Below, in pieces: positions 12,252 to 54,358 of a stretch of 64,000 bases of DNA. Source of the stretch: a virus. Taxonomy: Duplodnaviria > Caudoviricetes. A program made the position numbers and the translations under genes. The notes beneath the pieces were generated by a model. The model ran no database searches. It worked only from the letters and a program-made list of their open reading frames with translations, and had not been told where the DNA came from. The stretch lies in IMG/VR virus record IMGVR_UViG_3300025601_000007, one strand, 5' to 3'. The stretch's first letter is position 1; each line of letters starts with the position of its first letter.

Positions 12252-14069
12252 ATGAGCGGACTTATTTCCGATTACCAAGATAAATATATCATTTCCGAGT
12301 ACTATACATTTAATGCTCCAACCCGTGAAATGATTATAGAGGCTGAAAAAAAATATCAGCCTATCGTGATGTCTGGAATTCTTCAGATAGCAGATACGTT
12401 AAATAAAAACGGTCGAATTTACCCATACGAAATTTTAAAGCGCGAGGCTGATAAGTACATGGAGCTCGTAAAGGAAAACGTGGCTGGTGGTGAACTTGAC
12501 CATCCTGATTGCAACTCATTAGACACTAGCATTTTAACCATTAACGGCTGGAAGAAGCTAATAGATATTGCAGAAGATGAGTTTATATATACTTTAAATC
12601 AGGAAACTAATAAAATTGAGGCTCATAAGATTGATAAAAAAATCTTAGAACCCTATAGTGGTAAGATGTATCACTTTAAGGGTAAAGGAATTGATTTGAT
12701 GGTTACTCCAAATCATAGATTTATACTTGAGACATCTGATGGGGTATCTTTTGAGAAGACAGCATCTGAGCTGTCTGAGTATAGAAGCGGAAAGTGGAGA
12801 ATTCCTAAAAAAGGAAATTGGGATGGAATTAATTACGATTCCTATATAATCCCTGGAATCGAAGAGTTTAAACCACACATAAGCAATGAGCTTAAGGATA
12901 AATATTCTCAAAACCTTGTTGTTAATGCAAAAGCGTGGTTTGCTTTTTTAGGTTTGTATCTAGCTGATGGAACTTCTGCTGGAGTGTGTGGGAGCAAAGC
13001 AAAACACAACCTCGTTAAAATTACACAGAAGAAGTCTGAGAATTTTGAGGCAATTAGAAAAATATTTGATGATTTAGGGATAGAGTATAACGAACGTGTT
13101 TATAGAGATGGGAAAATAGATTTTCAAATTTACGATGCACGACTTAAGCAATATCTATTTCCTTTAGGGAATAGTTCTGAAAAATACATTCCAGAAGATA
13201 TAAAAGCAGCTAATTCAGAATTGCTGACTATTCTTTTTGAAAATTTTCACATGGGAGATGGAACATCTAAAACATCTTATCATAAAGACAAAGGATATGT
13301 GTGTAAAAAGATTTTTTCTACTTCAGAAAAGATGATTAAAGACTTTAGTGAGGTGCTGTTAAAAATAGGGCTCCACGGAAATATAACTCAAGAACAACCT
13401 GTAGATAGATATATAAATGATGTAGTCGTTCTTGAAAAAGAAGTGGTGATGTCAGATGGGGCTGTAGAGATGGTTAAAGAAGAAATTTTAAAACCAAGAT
13501 TGATTGAGGCTAAAAATAGTAAAACTAAATTCATCCTTAATGTTAGCACTACAGATTTTATTTACATGGATGAGAGATTTTTAAAAATCTCTCAAATCCA
13601 AAACCCGTTTGATAAAGTAGCTTGTGTCAGAGTTAAAAACGGAAATTTCTTTGTAATGCGTAATGGTAAATCCCATTGGACTGGAAACTCCGCAGTTGTA
13701 TCTCTCGCTAATGTTTCACACCGTGTTGTTGAGATGTGGTGGGAAGGAAAAGAATTATGGGGCCGAGTGCAAATTGCTGAAACAGATGCAGGCAACACGT
13801 TGAAGGGTCTTCTAAAAACTGGATTCAAATTAGGAATTTCTTCTCGTGGAGTAGGAAGTGTTAAGTCTCAGGGTGGACAAGACATTGTGCAAGATGATTT
13901 TGAACTAATCGCTTTTGATTATGTATCAAACCCATCAACCCCAGGGGCTTACCTTTTTAAAGAAGGTTATATGAGACCACTTAAAGGGGTTAAAGAAAAA
14001 GCTAAATCAATAGGAGAGCTTAACCGTTTACAACTTATTTCTCAGAAATCTTTCTGGCAATCAGCGTAA
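12252..14069 (+). CDS. prohead protease (T4 gp21-like) with intein
   Basis: NKNGRIYP, GELDHPD|intein|SAVVSLANVSH, LGISSRGVGS, FELIAFDYVSNPSTPGA. Lies upstream of the scaffold and capsid genes. Confidence 0.92.
   Translation: MSGLISDYQDKYIISEYYTFNAPTREMIIEAEKKYQPIVMSGILQIADTLNKNGRIYPYEILKREADKYMELVKENVAGGELDHPDCNSLDTSILTINGWKKLIDIAEDEFIYTLNQETNKIEAHKIDKKILEPYSGKMYHFKGKGIDLMVTPNHRFILETSDGVSFEKTASELSEYRSGKWRIPKKGNWDGINYDSYIIPGIEEFKPHISNELKDKYSQNLVVNAKAWFAFLGLYLADGTSAGVCGSKAKHNLVKITQKKSENFEAIRKIFDDLGIEYNERVYRDGKIDFQIYDARLKQYLFPLGNSSEKYIPEDIKAANSELLTILFENFHMGDGTSKTSYHKDKGYVCKKIFSTSEKMIKDFSEVLLKIGLHGNITQEQPVDRYINDVVVLEKEVVMSDGAVEMVKEEILKPRLIEAKNSKTKFILNVSTTDFIYMDERFLKISQIQNPFDKVACVRVKNGNFFVMRNGKSHWTGNSAVVSLANVSHRVVEMWWEGKELWGRVQIAETDAGNTLKGLLKTGFKLGISSRGVGSVKSQGGQDIVQDDFELIAFDYVSNPSTPGAYLFKEGYMRPLKGVKEKAKSIGELNRLQLISQKSFWQSA
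12510..13688 (+). mobile_element. intein with LAGLIDADG endonuclease in prohead protease
   Basis: HPD|CNSLDTSILT...HWTGN|S, 393 aa. Motifs FLGLYLADG and FHMGDG; penultimate Gly instead of His. Confidence 0.88.
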
Positions 14070-39282: not shown

Positions 39283-42200
39283 ATGGCACAAGAAAGCAAT
39301 AATAGTATATTTCAAAGAGTCTATGACGCTGTTAACAATAACAAGCGACGCACTCCTCCTATGGACGCACAAGGGCAACCGCCTGGAATATCCACTCCCT
39401 CGCAAGGTCTTTTTGGTTCATTAGAGGATTTTCAACAGCAGTACCTTGATTGGCAAGTAAATAAAATCAGTCATGACCTATACACCAGAACTATTTATTA
39501 TGACACAGACCGTGTCAATTCTTATCATGATTATCGTGCAATGGACCAGTCTCCAGAGGTGTCTGCCGCATTAGATATAATTCGAGACGAATGTCTCACA
39601 AGAAACGAGCGTGGAAACATTTTAGAGGTTTATAGCTCCAATGATAGAATCAAATCTAAGTTAGATGATTTATTCCATAACAGAATGAATATCGATTACA
39701 ATTTGAGTTTATGGATTAGAGACCTTATTAAGTATGGAGATTATTTCGTTCACTTACATGTCCATAAAGACGAAGGTATTTATGACTTCATGACTCTTCC
39801 TCAAGAAGAAATTCACCGTGAAGAAGGATTCGATGGAACAGCAAGTTCTGTACGTTTCCGCTGGGAAACAACGCAAGATTACTTTGAATCGTGGCAGGTT
39901 GCCCATTTCAGGCTTATTGAGGATACTAGAAAACTTCCTTACGGACGGTGCTTGAAGCACGACACTTATATAGAGACAAGTACAGGGTATAAGTTTATAA
40001 AAGATATAGAGAAAGGAGATTTAGTTTTTTCATTTAACTCTGACACACAAAAAAAAGAAGTCACAAAAGTCTTAGATACAATTTGTTCTGGTGAAAAAGA
40101 AATTATAAAGATTAGAACAAAGAATAATGAAATAGAAACCTCTGAGGAGCACAGTTTTATGGTGTACGAGGATGGTGGGTTCGTATACAAACAAGTTGAC
40201 GATTTAAGATTAGGAAATCTGCTTGTTATAGATTCTGGAGAAAACCCTTCAGGGGTAGATATTTTTTTAAATAAAGAACTAAAAGAAGAGAGAAACTTCA
40301 ACGGATATAAAAACAACATTGATTTAATCCCTGATGTTGTTGATGTTGATTTTGCAAGGCTATGGGGTTTTTTACTAGGAGATGGATGGGTTTTTAACGA
40401 TTCTGTTTTTTTTGCACGAGGTATTGACGAATCTTTAAATAAAAAATACGCTTCACTTTTGAAGAAGTTTTCAGGAAAAGACACTATAAACCTTAAAAAC
40501 GCAAATTTAGAGGGTAGTTTAGAATTTTCTCAAACAGTATGTAACTCAAAGTTGCTTTCTTATATTCTCGAAAATAACGGGTTTAAAGGAAATGTTTATA
40601 TTAAAAGATTGCCTAGTTGGATTTTTGAGGCGTCATTAGAAATAAGAGAAGCTTTAATAGAAGGCATTATAGACGCTGATGGTTCTGTAAATATTGACGA
40701 GTGGAACTGTAAAAGATACACAATAGAATTAGCAAATGAAATTTTAGTAAAAGACTTAAAAACGCTATTACAATCAATAGGTAGAAAGACTGGCAAAATC
40801 TGTTCAAGAGATAGAAGTTCTGTTGTTTTTTGGGGAAAAGAATACAAAAGAAAGAAAAGTTTCTACTTCTACTTTTATGACTCTAAAATTAAACAAGCAG
40901 CAAAACATGAGTTATCAAATAGGATTAATAGTGGTTTCATCTTATCTCCAATCATCTCTATTGAGAACTCTGAAAAAGCAGAGCAGGTTTATGATATCCA
41001 CGTAGAGCATGAACACCATAATTTCTATGCGAATGGGATAGTCGTTCACAACTCTATCTTAGACCCTGCTAGAAAACTTTGGAAGCAACTACAGCTCGCT
41101 GAGGACTCAATGTTGGTCTATAGAATCACAAGAGCTCCAGAGCGTAGAATATTCTACATTGAGGTAGGCAACTTGGAGGATGCTGATGTTAAGCAATACA
41201 TGCAGCGTATCCAAAAGCAAGTTAAAAAACAGCCTATTGTGAATCAGAACGACGGCAATATGAGTTATCGTTATGACCCAATGAATATCTCGGAAGATTA
41301 TTTTATTCCAGTTCGTGGTGACAAGAGCACAAAAATTGACACACTTCCTGGAGCTTGTTTGGCTCTAGATACTAAAATCAACCTTCTTGATGGTCGAAGC
41401 CTTGAGCTTCAGGAAATCATTAAAGAGCGTGATGAAGGAAAACAGCTTTGGACTTACAGTATAAATCCAGAAACTGGAGTAATAGTTCCAGGAAAAATTA
41501 CATGGGCTGGAGTTACTCGTAAAGACGCTAAAGTAATGAAATTGACTTTTGACAACGGAGAGTCTGTTATTGTTACACCTGACCACAAGTTCCCTACTCG
41601 TTTTAAAGGTATACAAGAAGCACAAAATCTTGAAGAAGGAGATTCTATGTGGAGTTTTGAGAAGAGGTTTCAGAAGATTTTCAAAAACAAACCTAAAGCT
41701 AAAACATATGAACAAGTGTGGGACCACCAAAGCAAATCCTGGGAGTATACACATCGTATGGTTCATAATTACATGTATGAGCGCAATTTGCACAAGGAAC
41801 ATGTTTATCAAAAAAATGTGGAAAACAAAAACGTGATTCATCATTATGATTTTGACCGATACAATAATTCTCCAGAGAATTTAAAATTAATGAATTTCCA
41901 TGACCATGTTATGCTTCATCAATCTATGTATGCTTCTTATAAAAAAGAGCGTAAAGAAGGTAGAAATAAGTATTGGGATAATATCTCTGAGAAAGAATTA
42001 GAATCTAAAAGAGTAGTAGCACGAATCAACTTAGAAAAAGCAACAGAACGAATTCAAGAGCTACTGCAAGATGAAGATTTTAAAGCTGATTTTGAAAAGA
42101 AACGAATAGCTGGATATCGTAAAGCAAGAAAAACATCTTCTTCTCGTCTAAAATCATCTATTGCCGCTTCTAAACAATGGGCCGATGGTTCTCTGCGTGA

Positions 42201-43746
42201 AGCCATTCAAGAAAAACAAGAAATAAATTACAACGATGTAATGTTGGAGTTTGTGGTCTCTCGTTTTCAAGACGGCATGAGTGCCACCAACATTCTACGA
42301 GACATTAATGTCTCTAATTCTGGGTTTATGTCTGAATTTAACAACATAAACAAAGGGAACAAGCAATTGAAGAAAATGTCATCTTTCACCCACAATAACT
42401 TAGTGAAGATGATGAAGTCATTTGGGTATTCTAACTGGAGAGATTTCACGAAAAAAGCCGAATTATTTAATCATAAAGTGGCATCGATTGAGTGGCTAGA
42501 AACACCTCAAGACACAGGCACAATAACTGTAGATGGAAATCATGAACTACATGACCACCATAATTTTGCACTTTCTGTCGGAGTTTTTACACAAAATAGC
42601 AATCTAGGTGACATTCAAGATATTGAATATTTAGAAAATAAACTATTCGCGGCGTTAAAGGTTCCAAAAACTTATTTGAATTATGCTGAGAATTTACCTG
42701 GGGGGCCAACACTGTCTCAAGCAGATTTAAGATTTGCTAGGACCATTAATAGAATCCAGGAGCAAGTTCTAATGGAACTTCGTCGAATTGGTAAAATTCA
42801 CTTAGCGTTTCTTGGGCATGAAGACGAGATTAATGATTTTGATTTAAAACTCACAAACCCTTCTACTCAACAAGAGCTGTTGAAGCTAGAGACGATGAAA
42901 TCTCGACTTGAAGTATTTACATTGTTTGTGTCACAAGATATCTACTCACCTGCTTCTTACACTTGGGGTATGAAATACATTCTTGGATTTTCTGAAAAGG
43001 ATATCAAGAAAATGCTTCGTCAGAAAAAAGTTGAAAGGAAACTGTTTACGGAGATTGAATTTGCTCCGCAGACATACAAAAAGATTGGATTGTTCAAAGA
43101 TTTGGATGATAAATTTGAAATCCCAGGAGCAGCAGAAGCACTCCAAAACGCTGAGAACGAAGATTTAATGGGAGATGACGGCGGCGGCGGCGGCGGAGGC
43201 TTTGGCGGAGGAGGAGACTCGCTGGCTGGAGACCCATCTGGAGACCTTGATATGGGAGGTGGAGATGAAGTTGGAGGCGATGCAGGAGGAGCGCCTCCAG
43301 TAAGTGATAGCGAGCCTATATCAGAAACTAAAAGAGAACGCATTTGGGAAGGTCACAACAAGCGTGTTGATAGTGCAATTGATGACTTGCTTAAAGAGCT
43401 TGAGGAAACCGATGAAGAAGTATTTACGGAAGAAAGCGAGGAAGAAAAGAAAGACAGAGAAAAAAACGTTTTGTTTAAATCAAACGAAGAATTTATCAGT
43501 CAGACTGATAAAATGATTAGTGAGATAAAGGGAAATTTAAAAGAATCTGAGAAAAATATTGAAAATTACATTATACCAAAAGGAGTAATAAAAGAAAGAG
43601 TTCAAGGAAACCCTCTTGTCTCTACCAGTAATGATTTAGCAAGAAAAGCTAGAGATATAATGGATGAGATTGACCAAATAATATCTGAAACTGGGCAAAA
43701 TTCTGATATGGAAATAATTGAAGAAGACTATGACGAGGAAGAGTAA
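39283..43746 (+). CDS. portal protein (gp20-like) with two inteins
   Basis: EVSAALDIIRDE, PYGR|intein|SILDPARK.WKQLQLAEDSMLVYRITRAPERRIFYI, EDYFIP, IDTLPGA|intein|SNLGDIQDIEYL..KLFAALKVP. Confidence 0.95.
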   Translation: MAQESNNSIFQRVYDAVNNNKRRTPPMDAQGQPPGISTPSQGLFGSLEDFQQQYLDWQVNKISHDLYTRTIYYDTDRVNSYHDYRAMDQSPEVSAALDIIRDECLTRNERGNILEVYSSNDRIKSKLDDLFHNRMNIDYNLSLWIRDLIKYGDYFVHLHVHKDEGIYDFMTLPQEEIHREEGFDGTASSVRFRWETTQDYFESWQVAHFRLIEDTRKLPYGRCLKHDTYIETSTGYKFIKDIEKGDLVFSFNSDTQKKEVTKVLDTICSGEKEIIKIRTKNNEIETSEEHSFMVYEDGGFVYKQVDDLRLGNLLVIDSGENPSGVDIFLNKELKEERNFNGYKNNIDLIPDVVDVDFARLWGFLLGDGWVFNDSVFFARGIDESLNKKYASLLKKFSGKDTINLKNANLEGSLEFSQTVCNSKLLSYILENNGFKGNVYIKRLPSWIFEASLEIREALIEGIIDADGSVNIDEWNCKRYTIELANEILVKDLKTLLQSIGRKTGKICSRDRSSVVFWGKEYKRKKSFYFYFYDSKIKQAAKHELSNRINSGFILSPIISIENSEKAEQVYDIHVEHEHHNFYANGIVVHNSILDPARKLWKQLQLAEDSMLVYRITRAPERRIFYIEVGNLEDADVKQYMQRIQKQVKKQPIVNQNDGNMSYRYDPMNISEDYFIPVRGDKSTKIDTLPGACLALDTKINLLDGRSLELQEIIKERDEGKQLWTYSINPETGVIVPGKITWAGVTRKDAKVMKLTFDNGESVIVTPDHKFPTRFKGIQEAQNLEEGDSMWSFEKRFQKIFKNKPKAKTYEQVWDHQSKSWEYTHRMVHNYMYERNLHKEHVYQKNVENKNVIHHYDFDRYNNSPENLKLMNFHDHVMLHQSMYASYKKERKEGRNKYWDNISEKELESKRVVARINLEKATERIQELLQDEDFKADFEKKRIAGYRKARKTSSSRLKSSIAASKQWADGSLREAIQEKQEINYNDVMLEFVVSRFQDGMSATNILRDINVSNSGFMSEFNNINKGNKQLKKMSSFTHNNLVKMMKSFGYSNWRDFTKKAELFNHKVASIEWLETPQDTGTITVDGNHELHDHHNFALSVGVFTQNSNLGDIQDIEYLENKLFAALKVPKTYLNYAENLPGGPTLSQADLRFARTINRIQEQVLMELRRIGKIHLAFLGHEDEINDFDLKLTNPSTQQELLKLETMKSRLEVFTLFVSQDIYSPASYTWGMKYILGFSEKDIKKMLRQKKVERKLFTEIEFAPQTYKKIGLFKDLDDKFEIPGAAEALQNAENEDLMGDDGGGGGGGFGGGGDSLAGDPSGDLDMGGGDEVGGDAGGAPPVSDSEPISETKRERIWEGHNKRVDSAIDDLLKELEETDEEVFTEESEEEKKDREKNVLFKSNEEFISQTDKMISEIKGNLKESEKNIENYIIPKGVIKERVQGNPLVSTSNDLARKARDIMDEIDQIISETGQNSDMEIIEEDYDEEE
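39949..41052 (+). mobile_element. portal intein 1 with LAGLIDADG endonuclease
   Basis: CLKHDT...IVVHN|S, 368 aa. Motifs LWGFLLGDG and LIEGIIDADG. Confidence 0.9.
41356..42597 (+). mobile_element. portal intein 2 with HNH-type endonuclease
   Basis: CLALDT...TPDHKF...VFTQN|S, 414 aa. YTHRMV...VIHHYDFDRYNNSPENL...DHVMLH; penultimate Gln. Confidence 0.88.
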
Positions 43747-43984
43747 GTTTGATGAACACTCAAATGTTAATGACACGTACAGTGTAAAGCGTAAACTAGC
43801 GAAGATTATAGAGGAACTAGAGGACCTTTATTCCACTGATGTAACTAAATTTTACAGCTACCGAAAAACGAAATCGGCGGGAACGAGAAGTCGTTCCCGC
43901 CTTCGGCGTATACATGCTGCTTTAAAAGATTTATCTAGAGACATTCTGAAGCAACGACAAGACTACGACTCAGATTACGAATAA
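43730..43984 (+). CDS. histone H1-like (Hc1-type) small basic protein
   Basis: KF...K.KSAGTRSRSRLRRI...LK pattern resembles the KAAGTRARK family (recall). Confidence 0.55.
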   Translation: MTRKSKFDEHSNVNDTYSVKRKLAKIIEELEDLYSTDVTKFYSYRKTKSAGTRSRSRLRRIHAALKDLSRDILKQRQDYDSDYE

Positions 43985-44186
43985 CTTGTCAATCAACGTC
44001 GGTATGATTATGTTGATGAATGACAACACGAGCTCCAAACTGGGATTACAACGGCTATCCAACAATAAATTTAAGTAGTCTCACGACAGGCTAAACAGCT
44101 GTTAATTAGTATAATTAACCCTTCAATCCTCATAGATTCAATGAATTAGTTTTAAACTAAAGTTGGATTATAACTTAAAATTGAAT

Positions 44187-44194
44187 TATATTTG
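44187..44194 (+). promoter_or_regulatory. Bacteroidota sigma-A type -7 element upstream of dnaE
   Basis: TATATTTG matches TAnnTTTG, with TTG(G) upstream and the ATG 26 nt downstream. Confidence 0.55.
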
Positions 44195-44220
44195 CTTCGG
44201 CAACACACTAATTCAACAAC

Positions 44221-46410
44221 ATGTATATAGTCTTCGATACAGAGACTACTGGCAGGCCAAAACGGTTTAACGCACCTTGGACAGATGCAGATAACTGGCC
44301 TCGACTAGTACAGTTAGCCTGGGTTGAATATGCACAAGACGGCAGCGAAATATCCAGGCACGACCTTATAATTAAACCTGAAGGATACAACATTCCTCAC
44401 GAAGTCGTTCAAATACACGGCATATCAAACGAAAAGGCGCACGCAGAAGGAATTTCTATGCTTGATGCCTTAAATCAGTTTAAAATTGCTCTAGAGCGTA
44501 ACTATTACCTCATAGCACATAATATCAATTTTGACCTTGGAATTATGGGGTGTGAATTTCATCGAGCATCGATGAGTCACAATCTAGCTTCAATATTTCC
44601 CGTTGACACGATGAAGCTTACAATTGACTTTTGTAAATTAAGGGGTCGTCGGGGTTATAAATTTCCAAAACTTATTGAGCTCCATAATAAGCTTTTTGGG
44701 AAAGACTTTTTAGGTGCTCACAACGCATTTTTCGATGTGCAAGCAACCGCTAAATGTTTTTTTGAACTTCAACGGCTTGGCATTTTCGGATTTAAAGAAC
44801 TTCCTTCCGATTCCTCTAATGGGTTTTCTTCTGAGAGTGTTGCCCACGTATCGGTATCCCCAGAAGAGGAAGCTAAGCCGTTAGTTCATTTCTCTTGTCA
44901 CACTCACTATAGCTTGCTTCGTGGCTCAGGTAGTATTGATAATTATCTTAAGCGTGCTAAAGAACTAGGGCACACATCTCTCGCTGTTATTGATGTCGAA
45001 ACCATGTCAGGCAGTCTAGAGTTGTCACAGAAAGCTGAAAAATACGGAATCAAGCCAATATTTGGAATTGAAATCTATCTCAACGATACTGTTGGCTCCG
45101 AAGAGTCAGAAAAAGGTGGATACCCAATAAAAATCATTGTTAAAAACCAAGTGGGTTTTGTAAACCTTAATAAGCTGATATTTAAATCTCATTCAGAAGG
45201 TTTTGATGGGATGTATTCTCGTATTCACACTGATTGGTTAATTGAGAACAAAGAAGGTTTGATTGTTACCACTGGAAACTACCAAGGATATCTCGCAAGT
45301 TTGTTTTTTAAAGGACAAAAGACGGCAGCTTCTAAATATTGGGAACGATTACAAAAAGCATTTGGCCCAGATTATATCGCAGAAATTAAGTTTTCAGAGA
45401 TTGGTGAGCAAAAGCGATTTAACAACTTTGTTTTAAAAATGGCATCCGCCACGAAGGCAATGGTGATTTTAGATAATGATGTTCATTATGTTAAGCAAAA
45501 AGAAGCGTCTTTGCAAGACACTGTTTCCGCTATAAAACAACAAATAGGGATGGATAAGTGTCGTTTAGAGGAACGAAGAAATCTGTATTATTTGTCGAGA
45601 AAAGACTACTATGTTCTGAATTCAAAATTTGGATACAATTACCCGCACAACATTCTACAGATATTCATGGATAACACTTTGAAGCTGGCTGAGCGTTGCA
45701 ATTTTGAATTTGAAGTAGGGGTTGAAAAATACCCTCGTTACGAACCAACGAAAGACATTATAGATTGGGCAGGAGCAGAGGACACGGAAACCATTATCAC
45801 AAAGATGGCTTTTGCGAAACTCAAGCAAAAGCTCGGACGTAAGTTTACCAAAGGAAAATTACAACAAACACAAGAGGTTGTAGATGAGTACACAAATAGA
45901 CTCCATTACGAGTTAAAAGTAATTAAGGACAAGAAGATGCTTGACTACTTCCTTGTAAACTGGGAAATTATTCGAGATTATAAGAAAAGAGGTTTTGAAA
46001 TTGGAAGTGGAAGAGGCTCTGCAGCTGGTTCTTTATTAGCATGGTGTCTTGACATCACTAAGATTGACCCTATTCAATTCGGGCTGTATTTTGAGCGTTT
46101 TTTGAATCCAGCACGTAATTGCGTTACTGAAGATGGGCTGGTGTTGATGAAAGATGGCTCACTGAAACCTATCGGAGATATTGTTCCTGGGGACCCAGTT
46201 GAAACAGAATCAGGCAACGGCGTTTTGGTTCAAGTGCATAAGCGAGATATCACACCAGCTGATGAGGTGTTTGAGATTGAAACTGAAGATTCCATCATTG
46301 TAAAATTGACGGGGAATCACATTGTACCTGTGATGCGCAAAGGAGAGCGTGTTGATATTCGCGTGGATGAGTTATTAGAGACAGATAAAATGTTAATACG
46401 AAAATTATGA
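44221..46410 (+). CDS. dnaE: DNA polymerase III alpha part 1 (DEDDh exonuclease + PHP + start of catalytic domain) ending in split intein N-half 1
   Basis: VFDTETTG...AHNINFD...AHNAFFD; HFSCHTHYSLL; GSGRGSAAGSL; LYFERFLNPARN|CVTEDG...stop. Confidence 0.95.
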   Translation: MYIVFDTETTGRPKRFNAPWTDADNWPRLVQLAWVEYAQDGSEISRHDLIIKPEGYNIPHEVVQIHGISNEKAHAEGISMLDALNQFKIALERNYYLIAHNINFDLGIMGCEFHRASMSHNLASIFPVDTMKLTIDFCKLRGRRGYKFPKLIELHNKLFGKDFLGAHNAFFDVQATAKCFFELQRLGIFGFKELPSDSSNGFSSESVAHVSVSPEEEAKPLVHFSCHTHYSLLRGSGSIDNYLKRAKELGHTSLAVIDVETMSGSLELSQKAEKYGIKPIFGIEIYLNDTVGSEESEKGGYPIKIIVKNQVGFVNLNKLIFKSHSEGFDGMYSRIHTDWLIENKEGLIVTTGNYQGYLASLFFKGQKTAASKYWERLQKAFGPDYIAEIKFSEIGEQKRFNNFVLKMASATKAMVILDNDVHYVKQKEASLQDTVSAIKQQIGMDKCRLEERRNLYYLSRKDYYVLNSKFGYNYPHNILQIFMDNTLKLAERCNFEFEVGVEKYPRYEPTKDIIDWAGAEDTETIITKMAFAKLKQKLGRKFTKGKLQQTQEVVDEYTNRLHYELKVIKDKKMLDYFLVNWEIIRDYKKRGFEIGSGRGSAAGSLLAWCLDITKIDPIQFGLYFERFLNPARNCVTEDGLVLMKDGSLKPIGDIVPGDPVETESGNGVLVQVHKRDITPADEVFEIETEDSIIVKLTGNHIVPVMRKGERVDIRVDELLETDKMLIRKL
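46120..46407 (+). mobile_element. split intein 1, N-fragment (96 aa)
   Basis: Cys1, GD.V, LTGNH block B, then a stop codon. Confidence 0.9.
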
Positions 46411-46739
46411 TAGTACAAGGAAGTAGAGATATTAATTTTAAAGGTATGTGTCAAGAAGGTTCTAAACTTATAATTCCAGCTTGGCAAAAACCAACAGAAT
46501 GGGATAAGCAGGTGAGAATATTCTTAGACCACATTATAATGTCAATGTCTTCCAATAAAGGCTCTCATGATATTGGAAGAATTAACGCGAGAGATACCCA
46601 CAAAATACCCTCTAATGAGAAGGGGTGGTTTGACAATATTGATGAAAGAGGAAATGAGATTGCAGAAGCGCTTTGGGGGCTGTATGAACTGGAGTTTAAA
46701 AATCCGAGCCTATCTATAGATAAAGACTTTCTAAAATGA
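46407..46739 (+). CDS. hypothetical protein inside the first dnaE split, 110 aa
   Basis: ATGA-coupled on both sides; no motif recognised. Confidence 0.7.
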   Translation: MIVQGSRDINFKGMCQEGSKLIIPAWQKPTEWDKQVRIFLDHIIMSMSSNKGSHDIGRINARDTHKIPSNEKGWFDNIDERGNEIAEALWGLYELEFKNPSLSIDKDFLK

Positions 46740-47800
46740 TAGATTTATTATTAAGCATAGAAGATATTACAAAAGCGGAACTCGACCAAAGACTTCGTGA
46801 GACTTCTCTTATTCATGCTGTTCCAACAAAAAAAGAAATCAAAGAGTGGCCATATAAGTGTGGTTTAGCTGTTTCTCCTTCTTGCATTATTGGAGCTATG
46901 TTAATTAGAGATAATAAAAAAACTGGTGTCATCACTGGTTTTCATTACATCATTGACCGTGGTAAGACGCAGATGAGATTGGAGGTGGATACTAAAAACT
47001 ACCCTTTAACTGGGAGTCAAGTTGAATATTTTACAAAAATTTATAACAAAAAAATACGTCACAAACTCCATCCTTCTAGAGGGGGAAAGTTTTTTTGGGA
47101 GCATGGGTTTTATATGAAGCACGGTGATTACAAAAAAATATACTATCGAACAAAAGGTTATAGAGAAAAATATCAAAAAGGATTAAATGAAACTTATGGA
47201 ACAACAGGGTTAACTTCTCCAGTACAAATACAAGAAGTTAGAGATAAGATATCTAAATCCATTCAAGACAAATACGGGGTGCCTTGGTTTTTAAACAGAG
47301 GAAGTCATTATAGTGCTGTGACTGAAACAATGATGGAAAAATATGGAGTTGAGAATATATTCCACAGTGATAATGTGCAACATGAAATCCAAGTCAACTT
47401 TGGAAGTGGGAGTTCTAAAAAAGAGCAAAAACTCGTTGAATACCTTGTTTCTGATTTAAAGCTTATTGATTCGAGTTTTTATGATGAAAGTGAAAATCAA
47501 CAAATTATAGTTGCTGATGTTGAAAACAAAAAAGCATATCATGTAGATTTTTATAATCCTAAAAACCGTATTATAGTAGAATTTTATGGAGACTATTGGC
47601 ACTGTAATCCATTAAAGTTTAAAGCAGATTACTTTCATCCTCATAAAAAGAAAACAGCAGGACAACTTTGGGAGATTGACGAACAGAGAATTAAGCAAAT
47701 TAAAAAGATAACAGGATATCGTGTTTTTATCATATGGGAACATGATTGGGACAAAAACAGAGAAGAAGTAAAAGCTACCTTAAAAAAAGCAATTCAATGA
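46736..47800 (+). CDS. free-standing DUF559/Vsr-like homing endonuclease
   Basis: KYGV repeats, then SKKEQKL...HVDFY...IVEFYGDYWHCNP...FIIWEHDW. Confidence 0.8.
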   Translation: MIDLLLSIEDITKAELDQRLRETSLIHAVPTKKEIKEWPYKCGLAVSPSCIIGAMLIRDNKKTGVITGFHYIIDRGKTQMRLEVDTKNYPLTGSQVEYFTKIYNKKIRHKLHPSRGGKFFWEHGFYMKHGDYKKIYYRTKGYREKYQKGLNETYGTTGLTSPVQIQEVRDKISKSIQDKYGVPWFLNRGSHYSAVTETMMEKYGVENIFHSDNVQHEIQVNFGSGSSKKEQKLVEYLVSDLKLIDSSFYDESENQQIIVADVENKKAYHVDFYNPKNRIIVEFYGDYWHCNPLKFKADYFHPHKKKTAGQLWEIDEQRIKQIKKITGYRVFIIWEHDWDKNREEVKATLKKAIQ

Positions 47801-47949
47801 AGACAGTCAGCATAAAGTCAATACGCAAGATACAGTACGACGGGCCAGTTTATGACTTATCTTTTGAAGGGGACCCATATTTTATGGTCAAATCTACTTC
47901 TAGTAAAGCTTTAAATAAAGAGTGTAACTCACTGATAATCATACACAAT
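47797..47949 (+). mobile_element. split intein 1, C-fragment (51 aa)
   Basis: VYDL block F and IIHN|S block G. Confidence 0.9.
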
Positions 47950-49419
47950 AGCCCTCCCGATTTAGATATTGATTTTCAAACAGGAACAGACCATGAAACT
48001 GATGACTTCCTTTACAAAAAATATGGTAGAGAACGAGTAATGAGTGTTGGTACTTTTTCTAAATGGAATGAAAGAGGATGTTTGAAGGACGTTGTTCGTG
48101 CACACCGTGGGCCAGAAGCAACAGGAACTGAATCGGATGTAGCTCAAATCACTAAAGAGATGCCGAAGTTCGACAAAGTCGAATACAACTTGGCTTGGTG
48201 GTTAGAAAACCATGCTCAGTCAGATGATTGCAGTCCACTCGTACAAAGATGGCTTACTGATTCATCCAACAAAGTAATTATAGAACAAACACTGGCTCTT
48301 CAGGGTCAAGTGAGAGGTTTTGGTAAACACGCCGCTGGAGTTGTTATTACTCCTGGGCCTTCTTGGGACTACCTCCCAACAAATATGATTGTCTCTAATA
48401 AATCAATTGTATCAGCATATCAAGAGGGGGACCGCTCTGGAAAAGACTTGAGTTATCTTGGGATATTGAAGCTTGACCGTTTGAAAGTGTCAACAATTAA
48501 TATCATCATGGATTGTATCAAGATGGTTAAGGATGGTGAAAAGATTGATTTGTTCGATACAATAATGAATATTGATGAGCAGTTTGATGACCAAAACCTT
48601 TACAAGGAGTTAATGCTTGGTCAGAACCACGGTATATTCCAATTTGAATCGCCAGGCATGAACGCTTTGATTCGAGGACTCAACGTTGAGAACTTTGAAG
48701 AAATGGCTGCTTGTAATGCTCTTTATCGACCAGGCCCAATGGGAATTGGAGCCCACCGTCAATACGTTGATAACAAGAGGTTCCCAGGACAGATTGAATT
48801 TCCATCTGATTTGATAAAGCCAATATTAGAAAAAACTAACGGTGTACTGGTGTTTCAGGAGCAAATTCAATTTATCGCAAAAGAGATAGCGGGAATGGAT
48901 TTAGGAGAGGGTGATAACTTGCGTCGTGCACTTGATAAAGCTGCGAAGCTTATAAAAAAAACAAACCAAGGAGAAGAACTCACTCAGGACGAAAAGGAAA
49001 GTAAGAACTATAAAGCTTACGAAGAGTATTGGAGTAAGTTTGTATCTGGAGCAGAGGAAAATGGTGTTCCGAAAGAAGAGGTTGATAAAATCCTTTTATA
49101 CCTTTCTGATTATCTAGGGTATTCGTTTAACAAATGTTTATCTGAAAACTGTGAAGTCACAGAAAAGGAAAAGGGAAAAATATCTCTTTTAAAAACTAGG
49201 CCAGGAGATATGATTTTAGGTTATAATCCAGACACGAAAAAAAATGAATGGGTTCCAGTGAAAGCTCGTCATAACAACGGTAAAAAGAAAGTTTATCGAA
49301 TTAAGACAAGTAGTGGGAAAATTTTAGAATGCACTTTGGACCATAAAATAATGACTGAACAAGGTATGTTACCTCTGAAAGATATTATTGAACAAAAGCT
49401 TTCTGTAAAAATAAACTAG
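47797..49419 (+). CDS. dnaE: DNA polymerase III alpha part 2, flanked by split intein C-half 1 and N-half 2 (start ATG 47797)
   Basis: MKTVSIKSIRK..VYDL..IIHN|SPPDLDIDF, GKHAAGVV, LKLDRL, GIFQFES, NALYRPGP, GVLVFQEQ, GYSFNK|CLSEN...stop. Confidence 0.95.
   Translation: MKTVSIKSIRKIQYDGPVYDLSFEGDPYFMVKSTSSKALNKECNSLIIIHNSPPDLDIDFQTGTDHETDDFLYKKYGRERVMSVGTFSKWNERGCLKDVVRAHRGPEATGTESDVAQITKEMPKFDKVEYNLAWWLENHAQSDDCSPLVQRWLTDSSNKVIIEQTLALQGQVRGFGKHAAGVVITPGPSWDYLPTNMIVSNKSIVSAYQEGDRSGKDLSYLGILKLDRLKVSTINIIMDCIKMVKDGEKIDLFDTIMNIDEQFDDQNLYKELMLGQNHGIFQFESPGMNALIRGLNVENFEEMAACNALYRPGPMGIGAHRQYVDNKRFPGQIEFPSDLIKPILEKTNGVLVFQEQIQFIAKEIAGMDLGEGDNLRRALDKAAKLIKKTNQGEELTQDEKESKNYKAYEEYWSKFVSGAEENGVPKEEVDKILLYLSDYLGYSFNKCLSENCEVTEKEKGKISLLKTRPGDMILGYNPDTKKNEWVPVKARHNNGKKKVYRIKTSSGKILECTLDHKIMTEQGMLPLKDIIEQKLSVKIN
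49135..49416 (+). mobile_element. split intein 2, N-fragment (94 aa)
   Basis: Cys1 CLSEN, GDMILG, CTLDHKI block B, then a stop codon. Confidence 0.9.
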
Positions 49420-49452
49420 TTTTAACAAATCTCAGTCTATATACTATATATT

Positions 49453-50442
49453 ATGAAAGTAAAAATCGATTTCAAAAAGGATATAGTGAATGGCGAAGAT
49501 ATTGATATGAAAAAATGGAGGGCAAAGTTGTCATTAGTTTTAATTAGACAAAACAACAACTACTACAATTCTGAGATATCAAATTATTATCACAAAAGTG
49601 TTTATGGGAAGAGTTTGGTAGATTTGCTTCCAGAATCCATTACAACTCCTTTGTGTCCGATTACAGGAGATAAGCCTAGTTACAAACTTCAAGGCTCTAT
49701 TGTTTTCGGTAAATTTTCGAATAATTGTACTACAACAGAAACTGCTAAGTACGTGGCGGAAAATAATAAAGAATATAAACTTCACGTCGAAAGAATGAAG
49801 GAAGAACGCAAAGGAAAAGGAAACCCTATGTACGGTATAAAAGCTTGGAACAAAGGAAAAACTAAAGATAATAATGAAGTCATGAAAAAGCTTTCTGAGC
49901 GCAGAAAAGGCGTTGAATTCAGCAATGAAACACTTGAGCGCATGTCAGAGAGTGCTAAAAAAAGAGAAATACATGGTCATACTGGATTTAAACATTCAGA
50001 AGAAACTAAACAGCGCCTTAGAGATATAACGATAGCTAGATACAAAAGTGGTGTCTATTCTCATGGTCAATCAAAACCTCATCTTGAGGTAAAGAGAATG
50101 CTAAGTGAACGATTTGGAAAAGATACTTATTCTGAATCAAATCACGCTAAAGAATTCAAAGGTACATGGGAAGAAGAGTTTTCTTGTTATGGTTATTCTT
50201 TTGACTTTAGAATAGGAAGCATTTTAATAGAAGTACAGGGAGATTTTTTTCATAGTAATCAAAATACAAGACATAGCGGGTGTACTCATGATGTTCAAAT
50301 AAAGAACAAGAAAAGAGATATAAAAAAAAGGCATGCAGTTGAAAGTGACGGGAGTTTTCAGCTTATAGAATTGTGGGAGAATGATATAATTAATAACGAG
50401 TCAATTATAAAAAACAAAATAAAATGTTTGAATCTATTATAG
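49453..50442 (+). CDS. free-standing endonuclease (NUMOD3-like repeats + DUF559/Vsr-like domain)
   Basis: GNPMYG.KAWNKG, GFKHSEETKQRL, FDF.IGSILIEVQGDFFH, IELWEND. Confidence 0.8.
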   Translation: MKVKIDFKKDIVNGEDIDMKKWRAKLSLVLIRQNNNYYNSEISNYYHKSVYGKSLVDLLPESITTPLCPITGDKPSYKLQGSIVFGKFSNNCTTTETAKYVAENNKEYKLHVERMKEERKGKGNPMYGIKAWNKGKTKDNNEVMKKLSERRKGVEFSNETLERMSESAKKREIHGHTGFKHSEETKQRLRDITIARYKSGVYSHGQSKPHLEVKRMLSERFGKDTYSESNHAKEFKGTWEEEFSCYGYSFDFRIGSILIEVQGDFFHSNQNTRHSGCTHDVQIKNKKRDIKKRHAVESDGSFQLIELWENDIINNESIIKNKIKCLNLL

Positions 50443-50534
50443 AAGTTGAAGAAATAGGAGTGGTAGATACTTACGATTTAGAAATCGATAATGAACATCA
50501 CAACTTCTATGCAAATGATATCTGTGTTTCAAAT
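50424..50534 (+). mobile_element. split intein 2, C-fragment (37 aa)
   Basis: TYDLEI, HNFYAN and VSN|S (penultimate Ser). Confidence 0.9.
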
Positions 50535-51515
50535 AGTCACTCGGTTTCATACGCATACATCGCTATGCAAACTTTATACTTAAAGCATTACTACCCAGTA
50601 TACTTTTATACAGCGCTATTGAACGAGCAAAAGTCTTCAAACGCTGGAAAGGAGAAAGAAAAACAATGGCTGACTCAGACAATCACCGCTGCAATATCTA
50701 GAGGAATCACTATAAAACCTCCGACTAGATTCTCAATATGGAGATGGTCGATGACTGGCCCCAACGAAATCACAATGGGTTTCTCTAGCATGACTGGGAT
50801 GGGAGATATTGCTTATAAAGAGTTGAAAGATAATTTAGCAATAAAAGGGAAGAAATTTAGCGAAATATCTATGGCTGCTTTTTTTGATATACCCTTCACT
50901 AAATTCAACAAGACTTCTTTTCGTTCTTGTTTACAAGCGGGAATGTTTGATGACTGGAGCACTTCTAGAGAATATTTAATGTTTCTAAGAGATAAAAACA
51001 GGAAGAAAAAACCTAAAGACGCTTCGCAGTTTGCAATGTTCGACATGGATGATATCGAGTACACTCATAGAATAGACCATTTAAAATACGCAGCAACTTC
51101 CGATATTGAAAAGCAAGATGAATTTATGGGAGTATGTGGTTTTGATATGGAAGAAATTAATCGAGTTTCAATTATTCACACCCGAATGGGGGAAATGAGT
51201 GACAAGTCGAAAGAAGCTATTCTTCCACTACCACATTATGCTGAAGAAGGTTTTTACTGGTTTATTATCAATGATATCTTATTTAAGAAAACTAAAAAAG
51301 GAAAAGACTTTATCTCTATACATGGAAGCGATGGTATTGACACTGTAAAGTTCAATATATTTTCTCCAATTAGTGAAAAACTTCTTCCTCAGCTACAGAA
51401 ACAAGCTGTATACGTAGGCAAATTCAAACGAAACGAAAAAGGATTTTTAAACTTTAACGGAAGAGTTAAATTAACAACAGTAATGCATGCATATGAAGAA
51501 ACATTATTGGTTTGA
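50424..51515 (+). CDS. dnaE: DNA polymerase III alpha part 3, starting with split intein C-half 2
   Basis: MFESIIEVEEIGVVDTYDLEI..HNFYAN..VSN|SHSVSYAYIAMQT.YLK.YYP..FY.ALL; C-terminal OB-fold-like region. Confidence 0.93.
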   Translation: MFESIIEVEEIGVVDTYDLEIDNEHHNFYANDICVSNSHSVSYAYIAMQTLYLKHYYPVYFYTALLNEQKSSNAGKEKEKQWLTQTITAAISRGITIKPPTRFSIWRWSMTGPNEITMGFSSMTGMGDIAYKELKDNLAIKGKKFSEISMAAFFDIPFTKFNKTSFRSCLQAGMFDDWSTSREYLMFLRDKNRKKKPKDASQFAMFDMDDIEYTHRIDHLKYAATSDIEKQDEFMGVCGFDMEEINRVSIIHTRMGEMSDKSKEAILPLPHYAEEGFYWFIINDILFKKTKKGKDFISIHGSDGIDTVKFNIFSPISEKLLPQLQKQAVYVGKFKRNEKGFLNFNGRVKLTTVMHAYEETLLV

Positions 51516-51849
51516 CAAACACCTCTTGAATAACTTGGAGGAATCAAAAGAATCAGGCGGTATAATCGCATCAATAGGGACAACTCGGCGAATGCGAGCC
51601 AATGGCACGTTATTGTACAAAAACAGCATGATGCAAGACGGATGGGATTATTTTCCTCTTCGACTTGAAATCGACGGACAACCAACATTTAGATACGTTT
51701 GTGAAAATGATTTTCATAAGCTTTGTCGAGAATATAAGATGTACGATTTAGGAGCTATGATGAGGGTGTTAAATGTTTTACAACAGACCATCGTCGTGTG
51801 CCCACATATAAAACAACAAGAGGACAACTCTCAATTTTACGACAATTAG
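51487..51849 (+). CDS. hypothetical protein, 120 aa
   Basis: ATG ORF overlapping the end of dnaE part 3. Confidence 0.6.
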   Translation: MHMKKHYWFDKHLLNNLEESKESGGIIASIGTTRRMRANGTLLYKNSMMQDGWDYFPLRLEIDGQPTFRYVCENDFHKLCREYKMYDLGAMMRVLNVLQQTIVVCPHIKQQEDNSQFYDN

Positions 51850-51928
51850 GAAAACGAGATATTATATCAAGACAAATGAAGGCGTTATAGGTCATTTCCA
51901 TTACAGGAATGCTTTAGACGCTCTGGCT

Positions 51929-52651
51929 TTGTATTACCTAATTCGAGGGCGATTCAAAAAATCCCCTGTAATTTATAATTTTTCCTGGAGGTCTGCTTCG
52001 GAAAAGCTTGGTATATCCGTTTCAATCCTTAGGAGATGTGTTCCAACGATGATTAAATGGGGTCTTGCTAAATTTCACCACGGCAACCTCCAAATGGTCT
52101 CTCATAACAAAGTAGAAAAGCCAATTAACGGGCTCATAGTTAAACATCGATGCACGATAGATACACAAGGTAGAAATATCACCACTGTGTCTGAAATGAA
52201 GAAGCTGCTGCTTCTAAAATTAGTTGAGTACAAAGCAAGACAGATACATCACGTCCACTCTAGCCTTAAGAACGAGATTAGCAACCGCTTCAATGAAGTG
52301 AATAAAGAAAATCGTACTGAAATTAAGGGAGAATTTGTGAGCATGTCTGTAACGCTTATTTCCAATGAATTAGAAATTAGCAGAACCCAATCTCAAACGC
52401 TAATACAATGGTGGGAGAAGATGAATTACATTGAAAGAATAAAAGGCCGAAAAAGAGCTGCACACATAATTGAGGGCACTTCTGTAAAGACTGTAATAGT
52501 ACCTAAAAAAGCTAGGAAAGTTGTGGGAGAAATAATGAAAGAGAAATTCGGATACGGATACTGGTGGAAAAACTTATTCATTACCGTTGAGCCAAACTTT
52601 TTAGCATTCCTCTCATTTCCACTCAAAGCAAAGAGCGGCCCTGGTTGCTAA
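51929..52651 (+). CDS. putative HTH DNA-binding protein (start uncertain)
   Basis: Two HTH-like segments (SASEKLGISVSILRR; ISNELEISRTQSQTLI). The frame is open upstream to ~51812 without an ATG. Confidence 0.5.
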   Translation: MYYLIRGRFKKSPVIYNFSWRSASEKLGISVSILRRCVPTMIKWGLAKFHHGNLQMVSHNKVEKPINGLIVKHRCTIDTQGRNITTVSEMKKLLLLKLVEYKARQIHHVHSSLKNEISNRFNEVNKENRTEIKGEFVSMSVTLISNELEISRTQSQTLIQWWEKMNYIERIKGRKRAAHIIEGTSVKTVIVPKKARKVVGEIMKEKFGYGYWWKNLFITVEPNFLAFLSFPLKAKSGPGC

Positions 52652-52701: not shown

Positions 52702-53139
52702 TTAAGTGATAGAACCCCAGTCAAAAAGCGCTAATACTGATATAATAAAGGTTATTATTATACCGACAGCAACTCCAATCCCTACTATGTAGCTTTTGTA
52801 GTCTTCAAGTTTAGAAATTCTTTCAATGAGGCTGTCTGTTGAATTTTTAACTTCAACTACATTTTCGTTAATTTCTTTAATCAGAGTCTTTATTCTTTCA
52901 TCTACACGGGCTTGAAATTTGTAAGAGGATTTTTCTATCTCATTTTTAATTGACGTTACTCCTGATTTTAGCTCAACAATTTCTTTCTCTAGTCCTTTAA
53001 GTTTTGTTATCTCTAAATTACTATCTTGAATGCCTTCACGAAGTTTTTCAGAGCTTTCATTTAAACGTTCTAATTCACGAATGATGTGCTTTGACCATTC
53101 GTTCCATCCATTTTTTTCTTGGTTATCCGACATCTTCAC
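52702..53139 (-). CDS. coiled-coil protein with C-terminal TM helix (XhlA/holin-like architecture)
   Basis: Heptad-rich body and IVGIGVAVGIIITFIISVLAL at the C-terminus. Confidence 0.6.
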   Translation of the reverse strand: MKMSDNQEKNGWNEWSKHIIRELERLNESSEKLREGIQDSNLEITKLKGLEKEIVELKSGVTSIKNEIEKSSYKFQARVDERIKTLIKEINENVVEVKNSTDSLIERISKLEDYKSYIVGIGVAVGIIITFIISVLALFDWGSIT

Positions 53140-54358
53140 TGTTATGTTTATCGTTATTTAACTCTTGGATTACCTTGCTAGACAAAACAATATAGCTCAC
53201 TTCTCCCTCTTCATTCAATATTGGACTTACTATGCTGCTTGCTAGCTTATAACCTTTTGTTTTATGCTTCCCTCTGTACTTTACAATAAGTGTTTTTTTT
53301 GTATTCAAAACACTTAACATTTTTTTCATTGTTTTTTCTTCATCTTCTGGATGAATCAATTCTGATAAACTTTGTTTTACATGCTCTTCAGGAGCATATC
53401 CAGTATATTCTAAACAAGAGGGAGATATGTAAACCAAAGACGGAGGGCCATCGTTTATTTTATACACTTTCACAAGTTCACGAGTGTTATGAAGAATTTT
53501 CTCATATATTTCCCTGTTTATAAAAGCTTCTTTTTCAGATTTTATAACTTCTGTAATCACCTTAGTGCTAGTCCTTATTTCAGTAATTTCTCCATTTTCA
53601 AGTATCGGCTTCGAACAAGACTCTACCCACACATAATACCCTTTTTTATGTCGAAGTCGAAACCTTGCAATTTGAAAATCTTTATTTTTCATCAAAGGTT
53701 TGTGTGATTCTTTTTTTATTCTTTCAACATCTTCAGGCAACACAAAATCATAAGCATTTTTTTCAACCATGTCACTTTGACTGTATCCAAAAAGCTTTTC
53801 GTAAGAAGGAGAAACGTATATATAATTTCCTTTGGTGTCATGCAAGCAAATAGCTTCGTGACTACTTTCAGTTAAAACTTTGTAAATTTTATCTTGTTTA
53901 CTAATTTTTATAGCTTGTTGAATTTCTGTTGTTATGTTCGCACAAACGCTGTAATTAATCCCATTATTATCAGGAATTGAAGAATTCCATTTTAACCAAA
54001 CGCTATGACCATCCTTATGGAGATATTCATTCACAAATCCTTCAATAACACTCTCAATACCTTTTTTTAGCTTAGTCAAAACAGCTTTAGTTTTATCAAC
54101 ACTGTTCGGAGAAATAAAAGACAATATAGGAGATGATAGCAATTCCTCTTCAGAGTATCCTAACCACTTGCAAAAAACAGAATTAACTTTAATAAACATT
54201 TCATCTTCAACATTTGCTATACACATTCCAGCTGAAGAGTTTTCAAAAAAACCTCTAAACATTTTTTCTGAATCAAGAATATCTTTGTCGCGTCGATTAA
54301 GTTTTTCCGTGAGTGATTTAAGAAGTTCTATGTTAATATTGCTCTCCATAAACGGCAA
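53123..54358 (-). CDS. protein made of three PAS/PAC domains, no output domain
   Basis: Three repeats of F..FE/S...I...N/SP....LGYS.EE......F/I.P.D...Y..R/H.HK.G..VW. Confidence 0.85.
   Translation of the reverse strand: MPFMESNINIELLKSLTEKLNRRDKDILDSEKMFRGFFENSSAGMCIANVEDEMFIKVNSVFCKWLGYSEEELLSSPILSFISPNSVDKTKAVLTKLKKGIESVIEGFVNEYLHKDGHSVWLKWNSSIPDNNGINYSVCANITTEIQQAIKISKQDKIYKVLTESSHEAICLHDTKGNYIYVSPSYEKLFGYSQSDMVEKNAYDFVLPEDVERIKKESHKPLMKNKDFQIARFRLRHKKGYYVWVESCSKPILENGEITEIRTSTKVITEVIKSEKEAFINREIYEKILHNTRELVKVYKINDGPPSLVYISPSCLEYTGYAPEEHVKQSLSELIHPEDEEKTMKKMLSVLNTKKTLIVKYRGKHKTKGYKLASSIVSPILNEEGEVSYIVLSSKVIQELNNDKHNSEDVG

Follow-up and report, generated by a model that had tools for sequence, protein, structure and literature searches.

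The 64,000-nucleotide (nt) stretch of viral DNA analysed here, referred to as the window (IMG/VR record IMGVR_UViG_3300025601_000007; Duplodnaviria, Caudoviricetes), carries between positions 44221 and 51515 a dnaE gene, coding for the alpha subunit of DNA polymerase III (Pol III alpha), which is divided over three open reading frames (ORFs). We consider it very probable, judging from the sequence, that two unrelated cassettes, each made up of an intein and a homing endonuclease (HE) gene, sit in this DnaE-type polymerase gene and that two split inteins trans-splice the three proteins into one polymerase of 1354 amino acids (aa). The locus consists of six tightly packed ORFs placed head to tail on the plus strand, all of them at the coordinates where an earlier model-made reading of the letters alone (the sequence-only reading) had noted them. 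The features are collected in Table 1, in which the polymerase segments are called exteins and the N- and C-terminal intein halves IntN and IntC.

The three polymerase ORFs are consecutive parts of one DnaE-type Pol III alpha, with no gap at either junction. Extein 1 matches the Pfam families RNase_T (8.5e-13), PHP (2.8e-30) and DNA_pol3_alpha (PF07733; 6.8e-30, profile positions 15-99). The last of these continues in extein 2 (profile positions 99-259), which also matches DNA_pol3_finger (6.4e-40), so that the PF07733 profile is divided at position 99 between parts 1 and 2. Alignments to PDB entries run consecutively through the three parts: part 1 covers residues 6 to about 397-401 of E. coli DnaE, part 2 residues 398-761 (460-816 of Taq DnaE) and part 3, for which the Pfam search gave no match, residues 757-900 (814-951 of Taq DnaE) with E values from 2e-6 to 5e-5. 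The features of a DnaE-type (family C) enzyme are thus present, namely the PHP domain, the palm with the PDxDxD aspartates, the fingers and the region past the GYxFNKSH motif.

At each junction the upstream extein runs directly into Cys1 of an IntN, and the downstream extein begins directly after the last residue of an IntC. The start of part 2 was taken to be the true one since its position is common to the homologues in the related contigs L003, L004, L006 and L008. Removal in silico of the four intein halves (96, 51, 94 and 37 aa) joins the exteins (633, 395 and 326 aa) into the 1354-aa polymerase, which over 1110 residues is 51.8% identical to the intact 1169-aa allele of the contig L001; junction 1 lies within an ungapped block of 510 residues in this alignment and junction 2 within one of 83 residues. 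The sequence-only reading had described a Pol III alpha encoded as three genes with these ends and with the motifs restored at the joints, and the Pfam matches, the PDB alignments and the gapless alignment to the intact allele bear this out.

Table 1. Features of the divided dnaE locus and of other intein-bearing genes in the window.
Feature	Position	Strand	Length	Character
Part 1	44221-46410	+	729 aa	Extein 1 and IntN1
Extein 1	44221-46119	+	633 aa	DnaQ-like 3'-5' exonuclease, PHP, beginning of the Pol III alpha palm; last residues ..FERFLNPARN
IntN1	46120-46410	+	96 aa + stop	Cys1, block B TGNH; net charge -8; weak Pfam Hint match (1.9e-4)
Extra ORF	46407-46739	+	110 aa	In the first gap, before HE1; ATGA overlaps at the part 1 stop and the HE1 start
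HE1	46736-47800	+	354 aa	Free-standing homing endonuclease; DUF7487 repeats and C-terminal Vsr-like/EDxHD core (..Y.DF..EFYGDYWHCNP..D..WEHD)
Part 2	47797-49419	+	540 aa, from start ATG 47797	IntC1, extein 2 and IntN2
IntC1	47797-47949	+	51 aa	Last residues ..IIIHN, followed by Ser+1; net charge +2; ATGA overlap of start codon and HE1 stop
Extein 2	47950-49134	+	395 aa	Remaining palm from SPPDLDIDF (PDxDxD catalytic-aspartate motif) and fingers; ends ..GYSFNK
IntN2	49135-49419	+	94 aa + stop	Cys1, block B TLDH; net charge +7; Pfam Intein_splicing match (1.5e-6)
Spacer	49420-49452	+	33 nt	Non-coding; precedes HE2
HE2	49453-50442	+	329 aa	Second subfamily; NUMOD3-like N-terminal region and Vsr-like core (..FDF..IEVQGDFFHSNQ..D..WEND)
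Part 3	50424-51515	+	363 aa	IntC2 and extein 3
IntC2	50424-50534	+	37 aa	Ends ..ICVSN before Ser+1; net charge -10; no Lys or Arg
Extein 3	50535-51515	+	326 aa + stop	Starts SHSVSY; C-terminal part of Pol III alpha, after the fingers
PhoH	1138-2997	-		LAGLIDADG insert
Prohead protease	12252-14069	+		Intein_splicing and LAGLIDADG insert
Portal	39283-43746	+		Two contiguous inteins

Both inteins keep the residues of a class-1 intein, namely Cys1, the TxxH of block B, the terminal Asn and Ser+1 (C, TGNH, HN and S in intein 1; C, TLDH, SN and S in intein 2), and these are conserved in the homologues. The middle part does carry halves of two different inteins, as had been claimed: IntC1 at its start and IntN2 at its end, with their splicing residues kept. 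IntN2 matches the Npu and Ssp DnaE intein chains in PDB (9e-6 to 1e-4) and IntC2 gives weak matches to C-terminal intein blocks there. At the second insertion point, called site 2, 13 contiguous mini-inteins from relatives are collinear with IntN2 plus IntC2 and 47-64% identical to them. The break in intein 2 sits in the loop where endonuclease domains normally occur, a position which fits the gene-breaking model, according to which a split intein arises when a free-standing endonuclease gene inserts into a mini-intein (Dassa et al., PMC2677866).

For intein 1 a HMMER search with IntN1 against 1.8 billion representative proteins gave 11 matches at E <= 1e-10; all 10 of the relatives that were recovered have it at the C-terminal end of their protein, and no contiguous form of intein 1 was found among these matches. 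A predicted IntN1-IntC1 complex scored 0.84 against 0.00 for the best control; the mark used is one that 51 of 78 solved complexes and 2 of 108 mismatched pairs attain. The score may be due in part to resemblance to split inteins of solved structure. Contact agreement between the model runs was at least 93%, and the partner had a predicted local distance difference test (pLDDT) value of at least 74.

Each break holds a free-standing endonuclease gene, again as the sequence-only reading had it, and the 3' ends of these genes overlap the starts of the IntC halves downstream (HE1 and part 2 by 4 nt, HE2 and part 3 by 19 nt). HE1 matches Pfam DUF7487 (1.2e-6) and a PHROG homing endonuclease family (2e-10), HE2 a PHROG endonuclease family (1.7e-7) and, weakly, NUMOD3 (0.0083). 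The two proteins differ N-terminally and have a common C-terminal core of the form Y.DF ... IEV.GDYWHCNP ... D ... WE.D. An alignment of HE1-type and HE2-type proteins, including 8 homologues, has D271, E282, G285, N291 and E335 invariant and D286, H289, D315 and a Trp nearly so. Neither single-sequence nor profile searches of the PDB sequences with HE1 and HE2 yielded a significant match, the entry 3r3p appearing at E 3.5 in a profile search. The AlphaFold model of HE1 (pLDDT 74.5) has among its top five Foldseek matches both Vsr (1cw0; E 3.4e-3, probability 1.00, TM-score by target 0.51) and the catalytic domain of I-Bth0305I (3r3p; E 2e-2, probability 0.99-1.00, TM-score by target 0.59-0.62), both with modest scores. 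The catalytic Asp/His/Asp core of HE1 and HE2, together with the predicted Vsr-like fold of HE1, places them in the EDxHD family.

ORFs of about 145-160 aa are found a few genes past dnaE in several related contigs (L001 8991-9428, L003 13249-13704, L004 11158-11592, L008 10689-11171). Those of L003, L004 and L008 match DUF559, which is Vsr-like, and that of L001 contains ..EVDGDYWHGN..; they look like minimal stand-alone endonuclease cores.

The arrangement can be compared directly with related phage contigs in which one or both cassettes are missing. L001 and L002, two IMG/VR contigs, have the synteny of the window (terminase, T4-type portal, small ORF, dnaE), with dnaE as one 1169-aa gene uninterrupted at both sites (..FERFMNPTRKSMPDIDVDF.. 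and ..GYSFNKSHSCAYGY..) and a portal gene without intein. The closest relative, L003, has about 80% nucleotide identity and the same synteny. In it, part 1 with IntN1 is followed by an ORF, by HE1 and by a 772-aa protein made up of IntC1 and the rest of the polymerase, and extein 3 of the window is 87% identical to the matching part of this fused protein. In a blastn comparison, positions 49134-50531 of the window (1.4 kb, containing IntN2, the spacer, HE2 and IntC2) are a clean insertion relative to L003, between its positions 9336 and 9337. This presence and absence, together with the scattered occupancy described below, lends indirect support to the view that the endonucleases would cut unoccupied alleles site-specifically.

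We propose the following route of assembly. Two conserved sites in dnaE would have been invaded by two unrelated cassettes of intein and endonuclease, each of them a mini-intein broken in two by a free-standing endonuclease gene of the Vsr-like (EDxHD) type. The six ORFs are probably on one transcript, because they follow one another in the same direction and their stops and starts overlap; a scan for promoters and terminators gave nothing informative between the polymerase pieces. After translation the acidic IntN1 would pair with the basic IntC1 and the basic IntN2 with the acidic IntC2, and each rebuilt HINT domain would carry out class-1 splicing by formation of the Cys1 thioester, transfer to Ser+1 and cyclisation of Asn. 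This would ligate ..FLNPARN to SPPDLDIDF.. and ..GYSFNK to SHSVSY.. and yield one 1354-aa polymerase. Junction 1 is placed directly before the PDxDxD motif, so the palm would not be contiguous until the pieces have been joined; the catalytic aspartates of this motif presumably correspond to D401 and D403 of E. coli. The endonucleases would serve only the spread of the cassettes, by cutting unoccupied alleles during co-infection.

Several points weigh against this route. Trans-splicing at both junctions is something that we infer, and so is co-transcription, which gene spacing alone makes probable. The two inteins may be orthogonal, a view drawn only from their identity of about 22% and their opposite charge. 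Intein 1 has the penultimate His of block G (HN), and intein 2 has Ser instead. Finally, the ratios of non-synonymous to synonymous substitution (dN/dS) against L003, which are 0.03-0.04 for exteins 1 and 2, 0.11 for IntN1 and 0.21 for IntC1, are rough values because dS against L003 is near saturation; they suggest in a rough way that exteins 1 and 2 are under strong purifying selection.

The only serious alternative is that the intein halves no longer splice and act as docking domains only, holding the three pieces together non-covalently. The Ser in place of the penultimate His of intein 2 speaks for this explanation. Such a role has been proposed for genes split by homing endonuclease genes with dead intein relics and for the split NrdA of Aeh1, and there is a precedent for non-covalent assembly of a phage enzyme whose gene is split by a homing endonuclease gene (PMC3045599). 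We nevertheless find it improbable, since both inteins and dozens of homologues retain Cys1, TxxH, the terminal Asn and Ser+1, and since the halves have kept their full length (96+51 and 94+37 aa) and are not shrunken relics. Inteins without the penultimate His can still splice. The Ser of intein 2 should not be disabling because it is family-wide, the CVSN end being found in all 5 split and all 13 contiguous members of the intein 2 family, and because the contiguous forms must splice to give a working polymerase.

A second possibility is that the polymerase gene is decaying and has lost its function, the phage being either defective or dependent on another polymerase. The gene is certainly heavily parasitised, and the check for a second polymerase covered part of the genome only; even so we hold decay to be very improbable in view of the three open frames, the low dN/dS of exteins 1 and 2, the layout kept in many divergent contigs and the identical sequence in salt-lake runs across three years. 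Least probable of all are joining at the RNA level by introns or a trans-splicing RNA, a contrary case named by the sequence-only reading, and an assembly artefact: although homing endonuclease genes often reside in group I introns, an Rfam scan of 43500-52500 at E <= 1 found no family, group I and II introns included, what flanks the endonuclease genes is protein-coding sequence, namely intein halves that share the reading frame of the exteins, and independent assemblies from different samples show the same arrangement.

The salt-lake data also give a view of the population. The identical 7.3-kb locus was found in 24 salt-lake metagenome runs from 2017-2019, 18 of which may be source samples. 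Contigs of four of the runs, compared with the locus, carry the three-piece allele with almost no differences. A variant in which 46672 is joined to 47684 was found in a 32.7-kb contig (depth 9.4) from run X19 and in a second contig from run X20. It is without most of HE1 (46673-47683, 1011 bp), while IntN1 and IntC1 are both retained. The variant co-occurs with the full form, and both runs also contain short contigs with HE1 sequence. It represents the stage of endonuclease loss that one would expect and shows that the intein stays split when the endonuclease has gone. Another contig joint, which skips 3222, was set aside as unreliable because one of its sides had only 21 letters.

A wider search with the middle fragment gave 2171 proteins, and the best 120 cluster representatives were classified against the intact allele. 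Intact alleles are absent from this set because only proteins of 297-945 aa were admitted. Double-ended middle pieces make up at least 24 of the best 120 clusters: 19 clear clusters have IntC1 and IntN2 at the same two sites as the window, and 5 have an IntC at a third site (GRG/S, called site 0) together with IntN2. Of the rest, 26 clusters are split at site 1 only, 24 at site 0 only and 5 at site 2 only, and about 14 have a contiguous mini-intein of 129-150 aa at site 2. Full three-piece loci were found in independent contigs, namely L004/L005, L006, L007 and L008. L004/L005, a 396-kb contig, has in addition a contiguous intein within part 1 (L004 2718-4862); in L007 the first split is at site 0, and in L006 the second gap is without an endonuclease gene. 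Among uncultured T4-like jumbo phages a three-piece dnaE is common within one clade and not a one-off. A survey of related phages for intact, cis-intein and split alleles had been proposed with the sequence-only reading, and intact, one-split and contiguous-intein alleles were indeed found at the same sites. Outside the metagenomes, a megablast of the 7.3-kb locus against GenBank phages gave no match and tblastn gave only distant DnaE genes with at most 32% identity.

Site 0 is a split point 34 residues upstream of site 1 (L001 positions 432 and 466) and is seen in the proteins P0031, P0038, P0054 and P0065. In P0132 an IntN begins after ..PPDID, its first residue being C, which is a further insertion point in dnaE.

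On a tree of extein 2 (91 sequences, FastTree, local support only) the state at site 2 (none, contiguous or split) changes 35 times against a mean of 38 for shuffled states, and the state at sites 0 and 1 changes 23 times against 29. Since these numbers are near the shuffled means, cassette occupancy shows almost no correlation with the extein tree and is highly labile, which is what one would expect of elements that home actively. Recombination also shapes this picture, as does the clustering apart of different architectures at 90% identity. Near-identical exteins with different cassettes are found in P0018 and P0078 and in P0062 and P0108.

Since the middle fragment carries both IntC1 and IntN2, the two inteins, which are about 22-24% identical, must not cross-react. 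The polarity of charge is opposite in the two inteins of the window (Table 1) and is largely kept in the families: IntN1 is negative in 10 of 10 members (mean -9.1), IntC1 positive in 45 of 56 (mean +2.9) and split IntN2 positive in 36 of 39 (mean +5.2), while the IntC2 part is negative in 13 of 13 contiguous inteins and in 5 of 5 split loci, at only -1 in L007. The pattern does not hold in this contig, whose first intein is a different one. Opposite polarity is known for Npu DnaE and gp41-1, and charge engineering has given orthogonal split inteins in one system and was insufficient in another (bioRxiv 10.1101/546465). We put charge-based orthogonality forward as a hypothesis and not as a result, because charge engineering has had this mixed outcome and because L007 departs from the pattern.

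Combining charge and occupancy, one arrives at a co-adapted, orthogonal pair of inteins in a clade which keeps its replicase stably in two to four pieces, with an occupancy made nearly independent of phylogeny by frequent homing. We offer this tentatively, as something quite possible towards which we lean slightly less than away from it. With such a pair both ends of the middle fragment would be basic and could not pair, which would prevent its self-cyclisation and mis-ligation. If this co-adapted and stably divided state is real, the birth of split inteins from contiguous ones, their spread and the loss of their endonucleases would be observable at one site.

The host gene and the trans-splicing, which is proposed here from the sequences, are as in the cyanobacterial split DnaE (Ssp, Npu), and site 2 is in the same FNK(S/C)H motif region. 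The cyanobacterial site, which we take to be Y/CFNK, is only a few residues from site 2 of the phage (FNK/S). In cyanobacteria the two pieces are encoded at distant loci without an HE gene and the residue at +1 is Cys, whereas the phage genes are adjacent, have resident endonucleases, use Ser+1 twice and contain two split inteins. Trichodesmium dnaE reportedly has one split intein together with contiguous ones. It resembles the phage gene in having several inteins in one gene, and differs from it in that two of the phage inteins are split. The Trichodesmium erythraeum gene is described as split and with multiple inteins by Liu and Yang (2003, pmid 12766150; cited in PMC5874633). For Pol III alpha, Novikova et al. 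(2016, PMC4760082) report several insertion points grouped in the fingers and describe the cyanobacterial site a as split in every case.

The closest known arrangement is that of the phage-like fractured genes, described as fractured in two, among them the loci DnaE-1, DnaE-2 and DnaE-3 with differing insertion points, which also differ from the cyanobacterial one (Dassa et al., 2009, PMC2677866). An extra in-frame IntC in DnaE-1 was a hint of a multi-piece layout (PMC2677866). The features of those genes occur twice in the window: adjacent pieces on the same strand, one ending in an IntN and the next starting with an IntC, and between them a Vsr-like endonuclease gene overlapping the IntC start. 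The spacer before the endonuclease is short in both (33 nt here, 27-51 nt there; PMC2677866), and both are in phage-like environmental DNA with DnaE among the host genes. The window differs in having three pieces, the middle one with halves of two inteins, and an extra ORF in the first gap. It was also in fractured genes that the EDxHD family, with I-Bth0305I as its example, was originally discovered (Taylor et al., 2011, PMC3239194; PDB 3R3P). HE1 and HE2 resemble it in their C-terminal core with Asp/His/Asp spaced as in Vsr and in being encoded by a free-standing gene inside a split intein; in contrast to I-Bth0305I, which has NUMOD2/HTH, HE1 has DUF7487 repeats and HE2 a weak NUMOD3, and sequence similarity is not significant.

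Engineered tandem trans-splicing (bioRxiv 10.1101/546465; PMC12707363) has the same design, three polypeptides with a middle one that carries the IntC and IntN of different inteins, and the same opposite charge polarity (Npu DnaE and gp41-1). Here, however, the system would be natural, maintained in evolution and part of an essential enzyme. Known natural split inteins join two pieces each, and until now the use of two orthogonal ones to build a protein from three pieces has been confined to the laboratory; we found no description of a natural protein assembled in this way in the full-text literature, an absence which is not proof. The sequence-only reading had called the case unusual, which stands for the literature and not for nature, where dozens of metagenomic phage contigs have a double-ended middle fragment. 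A natural, selected case would, if true, show that tandem trans-splicing is biologically viable, and it would supply orthogonal split-intein pairs with Ser+1 that are useful in protein engineering. The contiguous alleles, the split ones with and without endonuclease and the empty ones in close relatives would be a test bed for the gene-breaking model of the origin of split inteins.

The 110-aa ORF in the first gap belongs to no Pfam or PHROG family and is translationally coupled on both sides. In L003 its place is taken by a 130-aa ORF of unrelated sequence (L003 6507-6899), and the more distant three-piece loci have no corresponding ORF in the first gap. The DnaQ-like exonuclease fused N-terminally to PHP and Pol III alpha (44221-44800, plus strand) is found in the window, L003, L006 and L008 and is absent in L001/L002 and L007.

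The phage is unusually rich in inteins beyond dnaE. Its T4-type portal gene has two contiguous inteins, one with LAGLIDADG and one with a weak HNH match, whereas the portal of L001 has none; the prohead protease has an Intein_splicing and LAGLIDADG insert and PhoH a LAGLIDADG insert. Just downstream of dnaE a protein with multiple PAS domains is encoded in the window (53123-54358, minus strand) and in L003 (11913-13184), and at the corresponding place in L007 (9665-10489) there are weaker PAS matches together with a holin domain.

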